Origin: a virus
Strand: one strand, 5' to 3'
UHGV virus genome: UHGV-2130109
Length of the DNA stretch: 13,198 nucleotides
The translations under genes were made by a program, and so were the position numbers. Positions 1 to 11,470 of the stretch are shown piece by piece. How positions within the stretch are numbered: the stretch's first letter is position 1; each line of letters opens with the position of its first letter. Below the pieces are notes generated by a model. The model saw only the letters and a list, made by a program, of their open reading frames with translations, did no database searches and was not told the DNA's origin.

Positions 1-252
1 GCGCTGACCGTCGTTCTGCACCCGGTAGTTCCCGAATGAGCACTTCCTGTGAAGCGGCTGGATGCCCGCACGGTTCAGGATTTTTTCAACCCGCGCCTGA
101 TGATTCAGGCGGTTAATTTCCTCGCTGCGCTTACGGCCCTCAGCCAGTTGCCATTCCCGCCATTCGTCGGTCGTCCGGAACGGTGCTGCCACGTGCGGTG
201 GTGCCAGACGGCGCACCCGTTCAAGAATCCCTCCTGTCGAAATGTTTTTCAT
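1..252 (-). CDS. DnaC-like replicative helicase loader, N-terminal part only (gene continues beyond left edge of window)
   Basis: Reverse-strand translation from ATG (252-250) reads MKNISTGGILERVRRLAPPHVAAPFRTTDEWREWQ...GIQPLHRKCSFGNYRV, which matches from memory the N-terminus of E. coli DnaC (..PAHIKPAFKTGEELLAWQ..GIRPLHQNCSFENYRV..). Start lies 7 nt downstream of the stop of the O-like gene, the typical phage replication-module arrangement. Confidence 0.75.
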   Translation of the reverse strand, partial: MKNISTGGILERVRRLAPPHVAAPFRTTDEWREWQLAEGRKRSEEINRLNHQARVEKILNRAGIQPLHRKCSFGNYRVQNDGQR

Positions 253-258
253 GGCTGA

Positions 259-1341
259 TTACCCCCTGAAACCCGGCGGAATTTCGGTGTCCGGTTCAGA
301 AATGTGATTCACGCAACGCAGGCTGACTGCGCCAGCCTTCGGCAGCGACCACGGATTTTCGAAATTCCTGTTCGGGCCAAAAAACGTCGATGCCTGCTGA
401 ACAAATTCAGTTCCCGCTTTCCCGGTAGCCTCCAGGTATCTTGCGTAACGCCTCACGCCATCCAGCACGACATCCGGTGACACCCCTTCGCGTAATCTGG
501 CCCTCCAGGCATTGAACGCGGATTTCTTCGGGTTTGACCCTGCCCGATGCGGATATTCACGCCAGACCCGTTCGAACACGTCAGGATAATCAACTCGTCC
601 CGCAGACGGTCCCGGCATCTCCCGGGTTAACCCAATCGGCTTCCCGCTCATCGCGGAATCGGCATCAGGCTGCTGCGGTTGGTGCTGTTGCTCCGGTTCG
701 ACGATCAGCACCTGCTGCACACAACGCCCGGAATCTGCTTCCGGTGTCGTGCCAGTTGGTCCTGGACGCTCAGTCAGAACGGGGCAAGAATCCCCCTGTG
801 GGTCCGTGGCGATTTTTTCGCCATGGACCAGAAGGGTTTTATCTCTTTCCTGTTCCTGTTCCTGTTCTTGTTCTTGGCTTGAAAGGGGCTCTGAAGGGGC
901 TTCAATTTTCCGACATGATTCACGTCTGACATCCAGATGGAAATCATCCTTATATCTATCATAAAAGGATGATAAAAAAGGATTTTCCAGCAACGCGGAA
1001 TATTCATTTCTTACCCCAGCACAACGGTTATCGCCAGGTTTCAGCGATTCACCAACCTGCCATGCTGCCATTTCATGCACCCATACAACCTCAGAATCAT
1101 GGTCATAGCTGCAAAAACCAGCCTCGCAAGCCATCTGAAGCCCCTTAGAAGCCCCTTCAGGCTCAAGTCCGGTTTCGTGAGCAATGTACAAAACGGGCAG
1201 GTAATAAAGGCCCAGCATATTGGAATGAGGCGAGGTCATCATATACAACGCCACTACCATACATTCCGGACCAGACTTCCTTAGTTTTCGCCCTGTTTCG
1301 CCTAACCAGAACTGAGGTGAAATTGTTGCGTAATTACGCAT
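259..1341 (-). CDS. Phage replication initiation protein (functional analogue of lambda O), with a C-terminal region resembling DnaT/primosomal-protein-like domains
   Basis: 360-codon ORF with ATG at 1341-1339 preceded by GAGAGGGG SD. Position directly after cII and before the DnaC-like gene. C-terminal block (VDYPDVFERVWREYPHRAGSNPKKSAFNAWRARL...) resembles DnaT-like C-termini as I recall them. Central low-complexity (EQ)n linker. Not similar to lambda O itself. Confidence 0.65.
   Translation of the reverse strand: MRNYATISPQFWLGETGRKLRKSGPECMVVALYMMTSPHSNMLGLYYLPVLYIAHETGLEPEGASKGLQMACEAGFCSYDHDSEVVWVHEMAAWQVGESLKPGDNRCAGVRNEYSALLENPFLSSFYDRYKDDFHLDVRRESCRKIEAPSEPLSSQEQEQEQEQERDKTLLVHGEKIATDPQGDSCPVLTERPGPTGTTPEADSGRCVQQVLIVEPEQQHQPQQPDADSAMSGKPIGLTREMPGPSAGRVDYPDVFERVWREYPHRAGSNPKKSAFNAWRARLREGVSPDVVLDGVRRYARYLEATGKAGTEFVQQASTFFGPNRNFENPWSLPKAGAVSLRCVNHISEPDTEIPPGFRG
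594..684. repeat. Intragenic copy of the ~90-bp repeat core that is tandemly arrayed upstream of the O-like gene
   Basis: 594-684 (tcgtcccgcagacggtcccggcatctcccgggttaacccaatcggcttcccgctcatcgcggaatcggcatcaggctgctgcggttggtg) matches 1367-1457 with about 2 mismatches and the first ~83 nt of the copies starting at 1487 and 1600. Confidence 0.9.
849..877. repeat. Hexanucleotide microsatellite (CCTGTT/CTTGTT)x5 inside the O-like gene, encoding an (EQ)n linker
   Basis: cctgttcctgttcctgttcttgttcttgg read directly; corresponds to QEQEQEQEQE in the minus-strand protein. Confidence 0.9.
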
Positions 1342-1366
1342 AGTCCCCTCTCATACAAGATTTACT

Positions 1367-1682
1367 TCATCCCGCAGACGGTCCCGGCATCTCCCGGGTT
1401 AACCCAATCGGCTTCCCGCTCATCACGGAATCGGCATCAGGCTGCTGCGGTTGGTGTGACTGCACATTGGTGTGACTGCACATCTTCGCAGACGGTCCCG
1501 GTATCTCCGGGTTAACCCAATCGGCTTCCCGCTCATCACGGAATCGGCATCAGGCTGCTGCGGTTGGTGTGACTGCACATTGGTGTGACTGCACATCTTC
1601 GCAGACGGTCCCGCTATCTCCGGGTTAACCCAATCGGCTTCCCGCTCATCACGGAATCGGCATCAGGCTGCTGCGGTTGGTG
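1367..1682. repeat. Three tandem direct repeats (~112-bp unit; third copy truncated), each containing the ~84-bp O-gene-derived core; the first two also carry a duplicated 16-bp motif TTGGTGTGACTGCACA (iteron-like)
   Basis: Units begin near 1374, 1487 and 1600 with cgcagacggtcccgg(c/t)atctcc(c)gggttaacccaatcggcttcccgctcatcacggaatcggcatcaggctgctgcggttggtg. The 16-mer pairs lie at 1451-1482 and 1564-1595. Array lies between cII and the O-like start. Confidence 0.9.
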
Positions 1683-1729
1683 TTTTTGCTGGCGAAATAC
1701 TTCCAGATGTGGCAGAATTATTTCCGAGT

Positions 1730-1806
1730 ATTGCTCCATGCCCTCTGAATATCAGATATTCATCAGGATTTGCTCAGAACGTCCGGCCCCAACCGGACGT
1801 TTTTTA
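1730..1806 (+). ncRNA. oop: OOP-like antisense RNA overlapping the 3' end of cII, ending in an intrinsic terminator
   Basis: 3' portion CAGGATTTGCTCAGAACGTCCGGCCCCAACCGGACGTTTTTTATT closely resembles lambda OOP 3' end (CTGGATTTGTTCAGAACGCTCGGTTGCCGCCGGGCGTTTTTTATT, from memory). Stem 1777-1785/1792-1800 plus T-run. Antisense to the cII 3' end as in lambda. The 5' end is approximate. Confidence 0.55.
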
Positions 1807-2048
1807 TTTGCATGAGAGTTAATCGCATGCTGAAACGCCCGGCTGATCGGACTGATATCCGATGCCATCTGGAACGCACATAAAATCGCCGCAATGTATC
1901 GCCAGTCGGTACGACTGATCTTCGATTCATGGCAGCCAATCATCTTTGCCAGTCCCCTTTGCGTCAGAGCTGACAGGTTGATAAGTAAATCCGTTTCAGC
2001 TCGATCGATATCGCGCTGTGACAGTTTGCTGTAACTTGTTTGTGACAT
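1752..2048 (-). CDS. cII: cII-family transcriptional activator (lysogeny establishment)
   Basis: 98-codon minus-strand ORF immediately downstream of cro/nutR. C-terminus ...HANKKRPVGAGRSEQILMNI parallels lambda CII ...TNKKRPAATERSEQIQMEF. The N-terminal two-thirds differs from lambda CII. Confidence 0.75.
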   Translation of the reverse strand: MSQTSYSKLSQRDIDRAETDLLINLSALTQRGLAKMIGCHESKISRTDWRYIAAILCAFQMASDISPISRAFQHAINSHANKKRPVGAGRSEQILMNI

Positions 2049-2086
2049 TTCTTATGATTCCAAATAGTGAATAGTTAGTTGAAAGG

Positions 2087-2104
2087 TATGCGTGGAAACG
2101 CATA
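2087..2104 (-). terminator. Hairpin between nutR and cII, candidate tR1-like pause/termination element
   Basis: tatgcgt-ggaa-acgcata: 7-bp stem with GNRA-type loop, at the lambda tR1 position. No strong U-run on the minus strand, so if functional it is probably rho-dependent. Confidence 0.25.
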
Positions 2105-2133
2105 TGGCCTTAGTTGGTCAGATATCTTGGGGC

Positions 2134-2179
2134 TCGCTTTGTCAGCGACGTAGGACGAATGCCCATTGTGAAAAGAGCG
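2134..2179 (-). promoter_or_regulatory. nutR: boxA-like (CGCTCTTTT, complement of 2171-2179) and boxB hairpin (TCGCTGACAAAGCGA, complement of 2134-2148)
   Basis: Lies immediately downstream of the cro stop on the minus strand. boxA is close to the CGCTCTT(T)A consensus. boxB has a 5-bp stem and the same GACAA pentaloop as the nutL boxB. Confidence 0.5.
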
Positions 2180-2186
2180 GTGTTAC

Positions 2187-2387
2187 TTATGCAGTTGTTT
2201 TTTTGTTACTTGGGAAGGGCTTTATTTCTTCCGCATAAACGCTTCCATCAGCGTTTATAGTTAAAAAAATCTTTCGGCCTGCATGAATGGCCTTGTTAAT
2301 CGCGCTTTGATATACGCCGAGATCTTTAGCCGTCTTGGTTTGCCCAAAGCGTATTGCATAATCTTTCAGGGTTATGCGTTGTTCCAT
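2187..2387 (-). CDS. cro: Cro repressor
   Basis: 66 aa, [66 protein letters not shown]; about 2 substitutions relative to lambda Cro as I recall it. SD TAAGGAGG upstream. Confidence 0.95.
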
Positions 2388-2413
2388 ACAACCTCCTTAG
2401 TACAGGCAATCAT

Positions 2414-2477
2414 TATCACCGCTAGAGGTATAATAGTCAACACGCACGGTGTTAGATATTTATCCCTTGCGGTGATA
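2414..2477. promoter_or_regulatory. Right operator oR1-oR2-oR3 with divergent pR (toward cro) and pRM (toward cI)
   Basis: 17-bp sites: oR1 2414-2430 (TACCTCTAGCGGTGATA on the cro strand, one G->A relative to lambda), oR2 2438-2454 (TAACACCGTGCGTGTTG, identical to lambda), oR3 2461-2477 (TATCACCGCAAGGGATA, identical to lambda). The cI ATG at 2488 sits at the 5' end of the pRM transcript, consistent with the leaderless lambda cI mRNA. Confidence 0.9.
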
Positions 2478-2484
2478 GATTTAA

Positions 2485-3201
<717 letters not shown>

Positions 3202-3271
3202 TGAAGGGCTAAATGTCTCCTAATAAAAACAGCAATCATTTGAAATTATTAATAATTATAGAGGCTTAGTC

Positions 3272-4270
3272 TTGGAAATCAGCACGGCGGTTATTCATTC
3301 CGAAGAAGATGCTTTGCGTTTTGTTGAGATGTACATCGCTGGGCAAGATCTTCCTGATGGAATATCATTTGAAGGGTGGCCTAACTTAACCTTCCGTCTT
3401 ACTGGTGACAAATTTCATGGCAGTTTGACTCCTTCTGTCATGAAGGGTTTTGTTGAAATGCAGGCCCAAATAAACCGAGCTTATGCATTGTTAAAGTACG
3501 GAGTTCCTGACCCAAGAAAGCTTTCAAAAGAAGAGAAGGAAGCTATCGAAATTCAGGTGAATGTTGAGAATGGCTCGTCCTTGATAGAAGTTAATATGGA
3601 TGGGTTCATGGGTGAGGTTATACAAACTGCGGTGAGTAAAGTGGGCCCTCAAGAGATCGTTATTACAGTTTTAGGGGTCGCTCTTATATGGGGCGGCGTC
3701 GTCCTATTCAAAAAATATCTAGAAGACCGCAAAGAGATTCGCATGGCAGAAGTAAAAAGCGAGTCTGAGCGTGAACACCTTGCGACCATGCGCTTCATGT
3801 CTGAGCAGGAAACAAAACGAAGTGAATTATTGACTCAGATTATTAGCGAAAAACCCAAGCTAGACAACATGGAAAGACTTGCTCATGACGCAAAAACCGA
3901 CATAGTTAAATCATTTGTCAAGGCTGATACAGCTCAGATTGATGGCGTTGTATTGGATGCAGATCTATCCAAAACCCTCACTACAAATGCAAGGCGGAAA
4001 TCAATGGAGATCCGCCTTGATGGAAATTATCGCATTGAAAAGGTTGACTCCACTGATCCAGAGAGCTTCAAAGTGCAAGTGAGAAATGTTGACTCCGATC
4101 TAAGAATATCGTGCATAGTACAAGATGTTTTTCTCGACGCATCCGAGCATAAAAAAGCTCTTCAGCAAGCTGAGTGGGATAGAAAACCAGTTCATTTGTC
4201 AATCAACGCAAAAGAACTAGATGGTGAAATAAAGTCCGCGATAATACTTTATGTCAAAGAGATAACATAA
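3272..4270 (+). CDS. Hypothetical single-pass membrane protein occupying the rexA/rexB position downstream of cI; candidate lysogen-expressed exclusion/abortive-infection factor
   Basis: 332-codon ORF with TTG start 7 nt after a GAGG SD. Central hydrophobic helix (IVITVLGVALIWGGVVLF, about residues 129-147), soluble N-terminal domain, charged K/E-rich C-terminal half. AT-rich spacer and low GC relative to cI. I recognise no similarity to RexA or RexB. Confidence 0.6.
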   Translation: MEISTAVIHSEEDALRFVEMYIAGQDLPDGISFEGWPNLTFRLTGDKFHGSLTPSVMKGFVEMQAQINRAYALLKYGVPDPRKLSKEEKEAIEIQVNVENGSSLIEVNMDGFMGEVIQTAVSKVGPQEIVITVLGVALIWGGVVLFKKYLEDRKEIRMAEVKSESEREHLATMRFMSEQETKRSELLTQIISEKPKLDNMERLAHDAKTDIVKSFVKADTAQIDGVVLDADLSKTLTTNARRKSMEIRLDGNYRIEKVDSTDPESFKVQVRNVDSDLRISCIVQDVFLDASEHKKALQQAEWDRKPVHLSINAKELDGEIKSAIILYVKEIT

Positions 4271-7651: not shown

Positions 7652-9712
7652 ATGAGCACTGATAAACAAGTTTACCCACTGTATTACGAAGCAAAAAATG
7701 ACAAGGTAAGAAAACGCCTCGGCATTAAAGGCGGTTTTTACTGGGCTGAGGCGAAAAAATTATCCATTGCAATCTCTCGTGGTGCTGTTGCGATTGACGA
7801 TGCGGGCTACGATGAAGATGACTTTAAAAAACCTGTTCGCGTTCATTTGCCCGTCGTAAATGACCTTCCACCGGAAGGAGTGTTTGATACCGAATTCTGT
7901 AATCGCTATGAAAAAGGCGGTAACGATGGCATCACCATGATGGCTATACCCTCCGATGACAACATCAACGGTGAAGATGCCACAACGGCTGACGGTGGCA
8001 ACGATGACCCAGACGGAGCTGTTCCGGGTAATGCGGAGAAAATCGAATCCACAGACAGCGACGATGACTGTATTGACTGTGAAATTCCCGTCGCCACTCT
8101 CAGTCTTACCCATCGTTTCCTTCACCTCTTCTTCTTTAGCAAGGATAAAGATGGAAAATACCGGCATCACGCCACACCAGAACAACGTAATAATGTGATC
8201 CGTCTGGAGATGGACACAGAAGATAGTTACCTTCAGAGCCTGCTTACTGCTGTGCGTTCACATCCAGAGCTGGATAAGCTGACGAATTATCACCTTAGCC
8301 GCCTGGCTGAATCTGTAGGGAAAGCATTCCCCCACTCTGCAAATCATCGCATCAGCCCGGCTGAATTCGACAAGTTCATTTCCACCTGGATGAAAACTGA
8401 CTACCTTGATCAGGGCCTGCTGACAAAAGAATGGCAGAACGGAAATTATGTTTCAGGCATTACCCGTACGCCTTCCGGTGCTAACGCTGGCGGCGGAAAT
8501 ATTACCGATCGTGGTGAAGGATTCAAACATGATAAGACATCACTCGCACGAGATGTAGCCACCGGCGTTCTGGCCCGTTCAATGGATGTGGATATTTATA
8601 ACCTGCACCCAGCACACGCAAAACGCGTTGAAGAAATCGTGTCAGAGAATAAGCCGCCCTTTTCTGTTTTTCGCGACAAATTTATCGCCATGCCCGGTGG
8701 GCTGGATTATTCCCGCGCCATTGTGGTGGCTTCCGTGAAAGAAGCACCAATCGGCATTGAGGCCATCCCGGCACGCGTGACTGAATATCTCAACAAAGTG
8801 TTGACCGAAACCGATCACGCTAACCCGGATCCGGAAATCGTGGAAATTGCCTGCGGTCGCTCATCAGCACCGATGCCGCAGCGCGGAACAGCAGAAGGAA
8901 AACATGGCGATGAAGAAAAGCAACAAACATCGGACACAATGGCTAATGAACAGGCAGCGCCTGAATCAGTGGAAGAAATTCCAGTTAAACATAATGAGGA
9001 CACGCAATCACTGGAAAATGTCTCATCTGTAGAAACGAAATACCAGGAACTGAGGGAGGAACTCAATAAAGCCAGGGAAAACATCCCCCCAAAAAATCCA
9101 GTCGATGCCGACAAATTACTGGCGGCTTCTCGCGGAGAATTCGTTGAAGGTATCAGCGACCCAACCGACCCGAAGTGGGTGAAGGGGATCCAGACTCGCG
9201 ACACTGAAGACCAGAATCAATCCAAAGTGGAACAAAATGAGCCAGAAGCGGAACAAAACAGCCCGGATACGCAACAAAACGGACCAGCAGAGCAACAACC
9301 AGAGCCAGTAGCACAACCGGAGCTGGAAAAATCCTGCCGCGTCTGTGCTCAGACTGGTGGGGGCAACTGCCCTGACTGCGGTCCGGTAATAGGAGATGAA
9401 ACTTACGCTGAAATTTTTGGAGAAAACGGCACATCTGCTGAAGAGAACTCAGCACAAGCGGATGTCCTGGAAAGTTCCGCTGATACAACTCATGAACTCG
9501 AGGCAGTTGCCCGGAATGCTCAGGGCAACAATGCGCCCGACGATAAGGCTGATTCAGAACCAGAAATTCTCGACTGGAAAAGACAGCTCGTGATTGCAGC
9601 CGTCTATGGTTTGTGCGCCAACCCCGCATGTATAGCCACAGCGCCAGCAATCCCTGATATCGCCATCATGATTGCCAACAGGCTTGAAAATTTCGGAGGT
9701 GATAAATCATGA
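7652..9712 (+). CDS. Large acidic protein (686 aa) resembling the N-terminal non-nuclease region of RecE (exonuclease VIII) but lacking a recognisable nuclease domain; C-terminal CxxC-x7-CxxC zinc ribbon
   Basis: Start chosen at ATG 7652 (MSTDKQ..., AGAGG upstream) rather than the track's 7364, which overlaps the preceding gene. Blocks such as [50 protein letters not shown] and [28 protein letters not shown] match my recollection of the E. coli RecE N-terminal region. Stop overlaps the gam start (ATGA at 9709-9712). Confidence 0.6.
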
Positions 9713-10005
9713 ATGCCTGGCTTATCCCCGATCGCATTGAAGAGCAGTCATGGGCACGACACTACCAGCAAATTGCCCGTGAAGAAACTGAAGCTGAGCT
9801 GGCAGACGACCTGGAAAAAGGTCTGCCCCAACACCTGTTTGAATCGCTATGCATCGATAATCTGCAACGTCACGGGGCCAGCAAAAAAGCTATTTCCCGT
9901 GCATTTGATGACGATGTCGATTTTCAGGAACGCATGGCAGAACACATCCGCTACATGGCTGAAACCATCGCCCGTCACCAAATTAATATTGATTCAGAGG
10001 TATAA
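9709..10005 (+). CDS. gam: Gam, RecBCD inhibitor (short form)
   Basis: 98 aa, [50 protein letters not shown]...; near-identical to the lambda GamS region as I recall it. Confidence 0.9.
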
Positions 10006-10010
10006 AACGG

Positions 10011-10796
10011 ATGAGTACAGCACTCGCAACGCTGGCAGGGAAGCTGGCTGAACGTGTCGGCATGGATTCTGTCGACCCACAGGAACTGATTACCACTCTT
10101 CGCCAGACAGCATTTAAAGGTGATGCCAGCGATGCCCAGTTCATCGCACTACTGATCGTCGCTAACCAGTACGGCCTTAATCCATGGACGAAAGAGATTT
10201 ACGCCTTTCCTGATAAACAGAACGGTATCGTTCCGGTGGTGGGTGTTGATGGCTGGTCCCGCATCATCAATGAAAACCAGCAGTTTGATGGCATGGACTT
10301 TGAGCAGGACGATGAATCATGTACATGCCGGATTTACCGCAAAGACCGAAATCATCCGATCTGCGTTACCGAGTGGATGGATGAATGTCGCCGCGCACCA
10401 TTCAAAACCCGCGAAGGCAGAGAAATCACCGGACCGTGGCAGTCGCATCCCAAACGGATGTTACGGCACAAAGCCATGATTCAGTGTGCTCGCCTGGCCT
10501 TCGGATTTGCTGGCATCTATGACAAGGATGAAGCCGAGCGTATTGTCGAAAATACTGCATATACTACAGAACGTCAGCCGGAACGCGACATCACCCCGGT
10601 TAACGAAGAAACCATGTCGGAAATTAACGCCCTTCTTACTTCCATGGAAAAAACGTGGGATGACGACCTGTTGCCGCTCTGTTCCCAGATTTTTCGCCGC
10701 AACATTTACACATCTTCAGAACTAACACAGGCTGAAGCTGTGAAGGTTCTTGGATTCCTGAAACAGAAAGTCACAGAGCAGAAGGTAGCAGCATGA
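10011..10796 (+). CDS. bet: Bet (Red-beta) single-strand annealing protein
   Basis: 261 aa, [98 protein letters not shown]...; essentially lambda Bet. Confidence 0.95.
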
Positions 10797-11470
10797 CACC
10801 GGACATTATCCTGCAACGTACAGGGATCGACGTGAGAGCTGTCGAACAGGGGGATGATGCGTGGCACAAATTACGGCTCGGCGTCATCACCGCTTCAGAA
10901 GTTCACAACGTGATAGCAAAACCCCGCTCAGGAAAGAAATGGCCTGACATGAAAATGTCCTACTTCCACACCCTGCTGGCTGAGGTTTGCACCGGTGTGG
11001 CTCCGGAAGTTAACGCTAAAGCGCTGGCCTGGGGAAAACAGTACGAGAACGACGCCAGAGCCCTCTTTGAGTTCACTTCCGGCGTGAATGTTACTGAATC
11101 CCCGATCATCTATCGCGACGAAAGTATGCGCACCGCCTGCTCTCCCGATGGTTTATGCAGTGACGGCAACGGCCTTGAACTGAAATGCCCGTTTACCTCC
11201 CGGGATTTCATGAAATTCCGGCTCGGTGGTTTCGAGGCCATAAAGTCGGCTTACATGGCCCAGGTGCAGTACAGCATGTGGGTGACACGAAAAGATGCCT
11301 GGTACTTTGCCAACTATGACCCGCGTATGAAGCGTGAAGGACTGCATTATGTCGTGGTCGAACGGGATGAAAAATACATGGCTGGTTTTGACGAAATGGT
11401 GCCAGAGTTCATCGAAAAAATGGACGAGGCACTGGCTGAAATTGGTTTTGTATTTGGGGAGCAATGGTGA
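10793..11470 (+). CDS. exo: Lambda-type 5'-3' exonuclease (Red-alpha)
   Basis: 225 aa, [65 protein letters not shown]...; essentially lambda Exo. ATGA overlap with bet. Confidence 0.95.

Follow-up and report, generated by a model that had tools for sequence, protein, structure and literature searches.

The 13,198-nt stretch of DNA analysed here (UHGV virus genome UHGV-2130109, called the window in what follows) is the early region of a lambdoid Escherichia coli prophage. Between its cII gene and the gene of a replication initiator lies a spacer that contains a tandem repeat array, and the sequence repeated there is also found inside the initiator gene. We consider, with a probability of about 0.6, that this array is a copy-number-variable duplication, made by recombination and kept by unequal crossover and gene conversion, and not an amplified origin of replication.

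Tandem Repeats Finder describes positions 1373–1683 as a repeat with a period of 113 nt, 2.7 copies and 98% matches (score 599). The head-to-tail units share a core of about 84–87 nt, of which a fourth, dispersed copy is located within the initiator gene (Table 1). A first-pass annotation of the window had reported such an intragenic segment repeated upstream of the gene, and the repeat search, the alignments and the exact coordinates all bear this out. The figure of about two mismatches given there is roughly right, the measured range being 1–4 differences, and the third copy, which had been described as truncated, is devoid only of the 16-mers that follow the other two, its core being complete. 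The four 16-mers counted in total (TTGGTGTGACTGCACA) are all exact and begin at 1451, 1467, 1564 and 1580, where shuffled sequences lead one to expect 0.14; outside these sites the window has none, even when 3 mismatches are tolerated. They are disposed as two adjacent pairs, 97 nt apart, in array units of 113 nt. Inspection of the 16-mers by eye only gave no convincing match to cII boxes, DnaA boxes or CRP-like sites. A dispersed mobile or repetitive extragenic palindromic (REP)-like element was rejected, as the core and the unique spacer DNA are confined to this locus in the 81 E. coli genomes that have them; in the 50 kb of phage POCJ13, both core and 16-mer are absent outside it. A structured regulatory RNA, either a leader or a small RNA, was also rejected. 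No Rfam family matched over positions 1–3300 at E ≤ 1, and the array folds no better than shuffled sequence, with z-scores from −1.15 to +1.18 on both strands for the one-, two- and three-copy forms (3 × 113 and 2 × 90 nt).

The distribution of the array was followed in 5426 complete E. coli genomes, 80 viral loci, IMG/VR, metagenome contigs and phage records. The same architecture was found in four sequenced phages (POCJ13, 75/02 Stx, phiSTEC1589-Stx1c and PhiR5_2; six phage records), in 38 IMG/VR stretches and in 14 metagenome contigs. The unique DNA of the spacer is present in 81 of the 5426 E. coli genomes and the DNA coding for the N-terminal domain of the initiator (N-domain) in 78 of those 81, the gap being due to three deletion genomes that have lost the N-domain. 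All of this is restricted to one narrow E. coli/Shigella prophage clade, core and 16-mers accompanying only initiators that are at least 96% identical. Initiators of 70% identity have no upstream copy of the core (L012–L021, L109). A covariation test for function found no upstream copy beyond the clade among the 80 viral loci, and a scan of species-representative genomes returned relatives of the N-domain only, none of them with upstream copies.

Within the clade, comparison with related prophages, which the first-pass annotation had proposed as a check for copy-number variation, did reveal it: close relatives carry one, two or three copies. JNE120442 has one, POCJ13 two and TOE17 three units of 90 nt, and the window has three units of 113 nt; among the 53 loci usable for haplotype analysis, two copies are the rule (42/53), followed by one (10/53) and three (1/53). 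In nearly all relatives the 90-nt unit equals the window's unit without 23 nt and one G, and the lost 23 nt sits between two 10-nt direct repeats (GAAGCCGATT). The 3 × 113 form was found only in two complete E. coli genomes, 23CRST047 and 23CRST049, which are 100% identical to the window over this region. One-copy relatives, such as JNE120442, are devoid of any 16-mer. The one-copy forms occur on four different cII/initiator haplotypes and with two junction types, and collapse of the array is therefore recurrent.

The copies within a genome do not vary independently. The state of the 23-nt indel and an A/T variant are common to all upstream copies within every genome: all three copies of the window have the 23-nt segment together with GATGCC, and the copies of the other lineage have GAAGCC and no segment. 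One relative (L088) has an initiator 100% identical to that of the window, yet its upstream copies are of the standard short form. Read from the sequences, this sharing of indel states within genomes is concerted evolution by conversion or unequal exchange. Furthermore, three E. coli genomes (SW071619 and its relatives, L003) and one metagenome contig (L125) lack exactly what separates an upstream from the intragenic copy, namely the N-domain and everything else between the two. In SW071619 the deletion is out of frame and the gene is annotated as a pseudogene. The contig, ERZ791741 NODE-9481, with a coverage of about 2×, shows a deletion from the second upstream copy to the intragenic one, by which the small open reading frame (ORF) that starts behind cII (MEQY...) is fused in frame to the C-terminal domain of the initiator; it may be a genuine variant lacking the N-domain or an assembly collapse at the repeat. 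The first-pass annotation had also raised a recent unstable duplication with ongoing homogenisation, and this suggestion is supported by the one to three copies, the common indel state, the near-identity of the gene-proximal and intragenic copies, and the deletions.

An AlphaFold model of the initiator was built on 32 homologues; residues 6–144 and 250–337 are confident in it, and residues 145–249 have a predicted local distance difference test score (pLDDT) below 50. In this model the core encodes the end of the predicted disordered linker and stops at the boundary of the C-terminal domain. Joined to other C-termini, residues 1–155 are also found in prophages of Acinetobacter, Klebsiella and beta-proteobacteria, and the part from about residues 228–249 to 360 recurs with other N-termini in phiP27, SfV and several Stx phages, the homology to other modular initiators starting at residues 228–249.

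The sequences themselves show the linker-coding core duplicated and tandemly amplified, the 23-nt deletion, the indel states common to the copies of a genome, the recurrent collapse to one copy and the deletions that reach the intragenic copy; the mechanisms are proposed. We suggest that a stretch of the initiator gene coding for the end of the linker was copied into the cII–initiator spacer and then amplified head to tail. Unequal crossover or slippage would shift the copy number between 1 and 3, and a slippage deletion between the two GAAGCCGATT repeats would convert a 113/114-nt unit into the common 90-nt unit. Gene conversion would keep the copies of one genome alike, with the intragenic copy apparently tied in too in the lineage of the window, and a crossover between an upstream and the intragenic copy would remove the putative origin along with the N-terminal DNA-binding domain. 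The processes envisaged, namely slipped-strand mispairing, unequal crossover and gene conversion between repeats of 84–113 nt, are exchanges that host RecA or the Gam, RecT and exonuclease of the phage would be expected to promote. As the coding sequence of a disordered linker at a module boundary, the segment would be free to duplicate and convert, and we infer that the repeats have little or no function other than belonging to the transcribed leader that precedes the initiator gene.

Several observations weigh against this explanation, among them the uniformity of the spacer. One and the same allele of the 177-nt two-copy array accompanies 22 of 22 distinct cII plus initiator haplotypes, and the 72-nt unique part of the spacer has two alleles, in contrast with 16 alleles and about 20 substitution sites in the N-domain coding DNA of 56 loci. 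Segregating sites (1 in 249 nt of spacer versus 14 in 465 nt of N-domain) gave a difference that looked significant; when independent events were counted over the 56 loci, about 4 singletons in 250 nt of spacer stood against about 17 in 462 nt of N-domain, and the polymorphism contrast as proof of selection was weakened to borderline. The uniformity of the spacer thus hints, at a borderline level, at purifying selection. The small ORF, which in the common 90-nt form is kept open and has a stop codon at a fixed distance of 17 nt from the initiator gene, could reflect selection for translational coupling. In addition, the long form of the window may be either ancestral or reconverted, as gene conversion may run in either direction, and some of the deletion variants, especially the contig of about 2× coverage, could be collapses of the assembly.

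The uniformity of the spacer and the open ORF find their place in another explanation, in which the cII–initiator spacer is a selected cis-element, either through a coupled small ORF or as the upstream region of an oop-like promoter that sets the expression of the initiator or of cII, the repeats being tolerated or modulatory. We regard it as unlikely and keep it as the main rival because the spacer is so uniform, being near-invariant across 22–27 haplotypes while both flanking genes vary. With one, two or three copies of the 90-nt unit the small ORF comprises 42, 72 or 102 residues, open throughout and always ending 17 nt before the initiator start codon; the deletions of 23 nt and 1 nt add up to 24 nt, by which the frame is preserved, and the 72-residue product (WP_000438870.1) is found beside seven initiator alleles, four cII alleles and three immunity types. 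In the window, however, the ORF is closed at 41 residues because of the 113-nt period, so that its length ranges from 41 to 102 residues, and conservation is confined to the first ~31 residues, the only part matched by PHROG 2751. Its Shine-Dalgarno-like GAGG, moreover, ends just 2 nt before the start codon. A tblastn search with the N-terminus of the small ORF against phages gave only the same six records. That the ORF might be a remnant of the 5′ end of another initiator gene was considered and found unsupported, the unique DNA being always linked to this initiator.

The other arm of the same explanation concerns transcription. The array lies directly upstream of the putative oop-like promoter and also forms part of the initiator gene's leader transcribed from pR, and the oop-like unit that abuts it has a lambda-like terminator and a plausible extended −10 element. 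This element (TGGCAGAAT) is 7 nt before the aligned oop start; the promoter was read from the sequence, a consensus scan having given none. The terminator aligns with that of lambda, the stem being changed on both sides, and the unit matches no Rfam family. Against a regulatory role of the repeats themselves, neither a promoter nor a terminator consensus was found in a scan of the array, and the folding analysis gave no RNA structure signal. A combined version, in which the spacer of about 250–410 nt is a selected cis-element (a translated leader whose peptide or coupled translation sets initiator dosage, or protein sites that tie origin firing to pR/pO transcription) and its repeats double as a route for deleting the origin-recognition module, thereby grounding the prophage, appears to us more doubtful still, and it is retained because the spacer is near-invariant across haplotypes and the 24-nt change preserves the frame.

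The first explanation goes together with a separate motif, inside the initiator gene, which has the behaviour of an iteron of this family. The motif AAGGGGCT is located at gene nt +184/+195 in nearly all of the 80 viral loci and in beta-proteobacterial genomes, and one to three further copies, spaced 11 bp, lie at +440 to +475, just before a (GAACAG)n tract (relatives L006–L085 and L138–L142). This second cluster has either orientation, depending on the lineage, and encodes different peptides; it is therefore the DNA, not the protein, that is conserved. At the first cluster, the codons of EGASKGL are almost always GAA GGG GCT TCN AAG GGG CTT in 53 distinct proteins, with the third position of the serine codon alone varying freely. 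Further copies of the iteron motif are found just upstream of the start codon in some relatives, and in the 50 kb of POCJ13 the 11-mers are essentially confined to the initiator gene. To judge from this pattern in the DNA, the origin probably lies inside the initiator gene, where inverted pairs of AAGGGGCTTC repeats, phased at 11 bp, flank an AT-rich stretch. No relevant paper was found in the literature on the iteron sequence or the 16-mer; the Eru1-3 replication types of Stx phages are different modules from this one (PMC8044961).

Two observations concern the surroundings of these iterons. The (GAACAG)n tract, at 841–880 in the window, encodes QEQEQE... and comes directly after the second iteron cluster in all family members examined (L006–L085 and L138–L144), down to 25% protein identity. 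Its role may lie in the DNA, as a purine-rich strand beside the iterons, as much as in the protein, as a linker. In one relative (L011/L092, IMGVR_UViG_2740892231_000013), the first iteron pair, at gene nt +184, contains an extra 11-nt copy, AAGGGGCTTCT, which frameshifts the initiator to 103 residues, the gene being disabled by the change in iteron copy number.

It is improbable, in our view, that the core, the 16-mers or both bind the initiator or a host replication factor, the upstream copies adding to the origin or sequestering the initiator. The repeats do adjoin an initiator gene, in a well-conserved spacer; the 16-mers are exact, paired and far more frequent than expected by chance; a perfect 10-bp palindrome (GGGTTAACCC) is present in the core, which has CCGCAG/CTGCGG at its two ends; and the putative origin has the array about 200 nt away on one side and the intragenic copy at a similar distance on the other. 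Nevertheless, no 16-mer occurs in the gene, elsewhere in the window, in the 50 kb of POCJ13 off the locus or in the one-copy relatives, and the array is without the family-wide AAGGGGCTTC motif, a search for GAAGGGGCTTC-type sites with up to 2 mismatches having given none in 1342–1751. There is no AT-rich unwinding element in the array either, its GC content being 0.57–0.62 across 1381–1680, and copy number and unit length vary freely. The palindrome of the core is not kept in the intragenic copy of the nearest outgroup (L109), and initiators of 70% identity do without an upstream copy. The proposal of an amplified origin or initiator-titrating array, made in the first-pass annotation, is thus not supported, given the absence of AAGGGGCTTC from the array and of the 16-mers from the gene and one-copy relatives, and its description of the intragenic segment as "ori-like" does not hold for a GC-rich, linker-coding segment whose palindrome is not conserved. 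The repeats are probably not a lambdoid ori iteron array: they offer no short motif at helical phasing, the 11-bp spacing being that of AAGGGGCTTC in the gene, and, unlike AAGGGGCT, core and 16-mers fail to co-occur with the DNA-binding domain across relatives.

The deletions described above might also be read as the work of a recombination cassette or switch, the repeats bracketing the N-terminal domain and its iterons for excision or exchange, in module swapping or in a programmed grounding of the prophage. The core coincides exactly with the point from which other modular initiators have the C-terminal domain in common, the natural deletions take out precisely the bracketed module, in the L125 contig the small ORF continues in frame into the C-terminal domain, and the phage encodes RecT and an exonuclease. 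We hold this to be very improbable nonetheless: no locus was found with another N-terminal module between the same repeats, the unique spacer being always with this initiator; the deletion in SW071619 disrupts the frame and leaves a gene annotated as a pseudogene; the contig, at its coverage, may be an assembly collapse; and deletion is the expected accident of any direct repeat. Finally, repeats that exceed short-read k-mers are prone to mis-assembly, but it is scarcely credible that the three 113-nt units were mis-assembled from fewer copies, given the identical array in two complete genomes, the same architecture in six phage records (four phages), many complete E. coli chromosomes, IMG/VR and metagenome contigs, and differences between units at specific positions, which are unusual for collapsed or expanded artefacts.

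Table 1. Features of the repeat array, the spacer, the initiator gene and their surroundings in the window (nucleotide positions unless residues are indicated).
Feature	Position	Strand	Remarks
Core, intragenic source copy	598–684	−	encodes initiator residues ~219–248, end of inter-domain linker
Upstream core 1, gene-proximal	1370–1456		1 of 87 aligned positions differs from intragenic copy (G653 vs A)
Upstream core 2	1487–1569		3 differences in the shared 84 nt of the alignment (C>T, 1-nt deletion, G>A)
Upstream core 3, cII-proximal	1600–1682		4 differences from intragenic copy in the alignment; no 16-mers after core
16-mer pair 1, TTGGTGTGACTGCACA ×2	1451–1482		exact; first 6 nt overlap end of core 1
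16-mer pair 2, TTGGTGTGACTGCACA ×2	1564–1595		exact
Small ORF (MEQY...), 41 residues in the window	1614–1739	−	starts 12 nt after cII stop, enters array
oop-like antisense unit, cII side of array	1710–1810	+	extended −10 TGGCAGAAT at 1710–1718, putative start near 1726
oop-like intrinsic terminator, then T run	1776–1803	+	within cII 3′ end
Candidate ori iteron pair 1, GAAGGGGCTTCTAAGGGGCTTC	1136–1158		inverted relative to pair 2; in codons of EGASKGL
Candidate ori iteron pair 2, two 11-mers of AAGGGGCTTC type	883–904		directly before (GAACAG)n tract
AT-rich dip, GC 0.30–0.37	901–1020		between iteron pairs; 13-nt inverted repeat at 943–973
Replication initiator gene, 360 residues	259–1341	−	
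Initiator, winged-helix-like N-terminal domain	residues 6–144		
Initiator, predicted disordered linker	residues 145–249		
Initiator, helical C-terminal domain	residues 250–337		followed by DnaT-like tail
DnaC-like helicase loader, 5′ part	1–252	−	downstream neighbour
cII	1752–2048	−	upstream neighbour in rightward operon; PF05269, E = 4.6e-26
cro	2187–2387	−	
cI, lambda-type	2488–3201	+	
Gam, RecT and YqaJ-type exonuclease recombination genes	9709–11470	+	

Regarding the initiator, it belongs to PHROG 1701, "DnaD-like helicase loader", and no Pfam family, Phage_rep_O included, matches the 360-residue protein at E ≤ 0.01. A fold search with the model gave nothing at E ≤ 0.001, and a weak winged-helix (MarR-like) resemblance. 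The gene had been called "O-like", which is correct as to its position and does not extend to the protein: it has no Phage_rep_O domain, and its partner is DnaC-like, not of the lambda P type, so that membership of the lambda O family was rejected. Residues 336–360 (259–333) match weakly the last ~25 residues of DnaT (NCBIfam, E = 0.009); a sequence search of the PDB likewise gave weak matches to this tail (2ru8, 6aep and 9zbt, E = 0.008–0.025), and otherwise nothing. By its sequence, this tail may mimic the contact of DnaT with the helicase or its loader.

Among known systems, the array comes closest to variable-number tandem repeats (VNTRs) and segmental duplications under concerted evolution, of which it is a fresh example; no description of this array was found in the searchable literature. 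The likeness lies in head-to-tail copies that are 98% alike and number one to three in close relatives, in an indel between 10-nt direct repeats present in all copies of a genome, in a dispersed parent that appears to be tied in by conversion, and in deletions between copies. Here, the parent copy is inside an essential phage gene only ~770 nt away, with the array in the transcribed leader of that gene, and because of this the same process can delete the DNA-binding domain of the initiator and the putative origin.

In the lambda ori, as annotated in NC_001416, gene O contains four iterons that bind O, and an AT-rich region comes after them. The probable origin of the present phage resembles it in being intragenic, at the junction of N-domain and linker, with phased repeats and an AT-rich stretch (883–1158) and with pR transcription passing through it. 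The array differs in lying outside the gene, in its GC-rich 113-nt units and in having no candidate iterons. A further likeness to lambda concerns oop and pO: an antisense terminator is kept at the 3′ end of cII, its stem showing compensatory changes, and the putative −10 element is at the same distance from the aligned oop start. In lambda the region upstream of pO is the start of gene O, which begins 32 nt after cII, whereas here a spacer of ~410 nt, array included, separates cII from the initiator gene.

Control iterons of plasmids (P1 incA; F, RK2) have the same sequence as the iterons of the origin and bind the initiator. The array is comparable in that its repeats are beside the initiator gene and outside the origin proper, but these do not share the motif of the origin candidate, and an incA-like titrating locus is improbable on this difference in sequence. 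Bacillus phage SPP1 (oriL/oriR) has initiator-binding repeats in gene 38 and a second copy of them elsewhere; these duplicated boxes adjoin an AT-rich region and serve as origins. The occurrence of a sequence from within the initiator gene for a second time in the genome is common to both phages; here, the duplicated segment is linker-coding and without candidate binding sites.

Assembly and annotation are easily misled at this locus, the variable small "hypothetical protein" being one symptom, and the locus is also a natural hotspot for the inactivation of the initiator, which bears on the inducibility of Stx-type and related prophages with this module. Attention is redirected to the probable origin used by this initiator family, which is uncharacterised and widespread, occurring in prophages of Escherichia, Shigella, Klebsiella, Acinetobacter and beta-proteobacteria. 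The predicted intragenic origin, with iterons written into frozen codons, is the more interesting by-product. If the conservation of the spacer does reflect function, it would represent a new regulatory leader for phage replication genes.

As for the gene neighbourhood, the rightward operon of the prophage is on the minus strand, and the context given in the first-pass annotation is to be corrected in that the genes of the cII/initiator operon are encoded there. The plus strand carries integrase, excisionase, YqaJ-type exonuclease, RecT, Gam, an ExoVIII-like protein and N. Between cro and cI there are lambda-type operator half-sites (TATCACCGC / GCGGTGATA) at 2414–2430 and 2461–2477, and a TTGACT-17-GATAAT promoter at 2440–2412 on the minus strand, which is presumably pR. 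Where lambda has rexAB, cI is followed directly by a gene of 332 residues (3272–4270, plus strand) that belongs to PHROG 6191, of unknown function; this gene has no match in Pfam or PADLOC and is a candidate for a cargo or defence gene expressed in the lysogen. The window and L088 are near-identical over 259–1100 and diverge by 1–4% from about 1100 through cII, which suggests, on sequence comparison, a recombination breakpoint inside the region coding for the N-domain. The rare long-form array sits in the left-hand segment of the window that diverges from L088.

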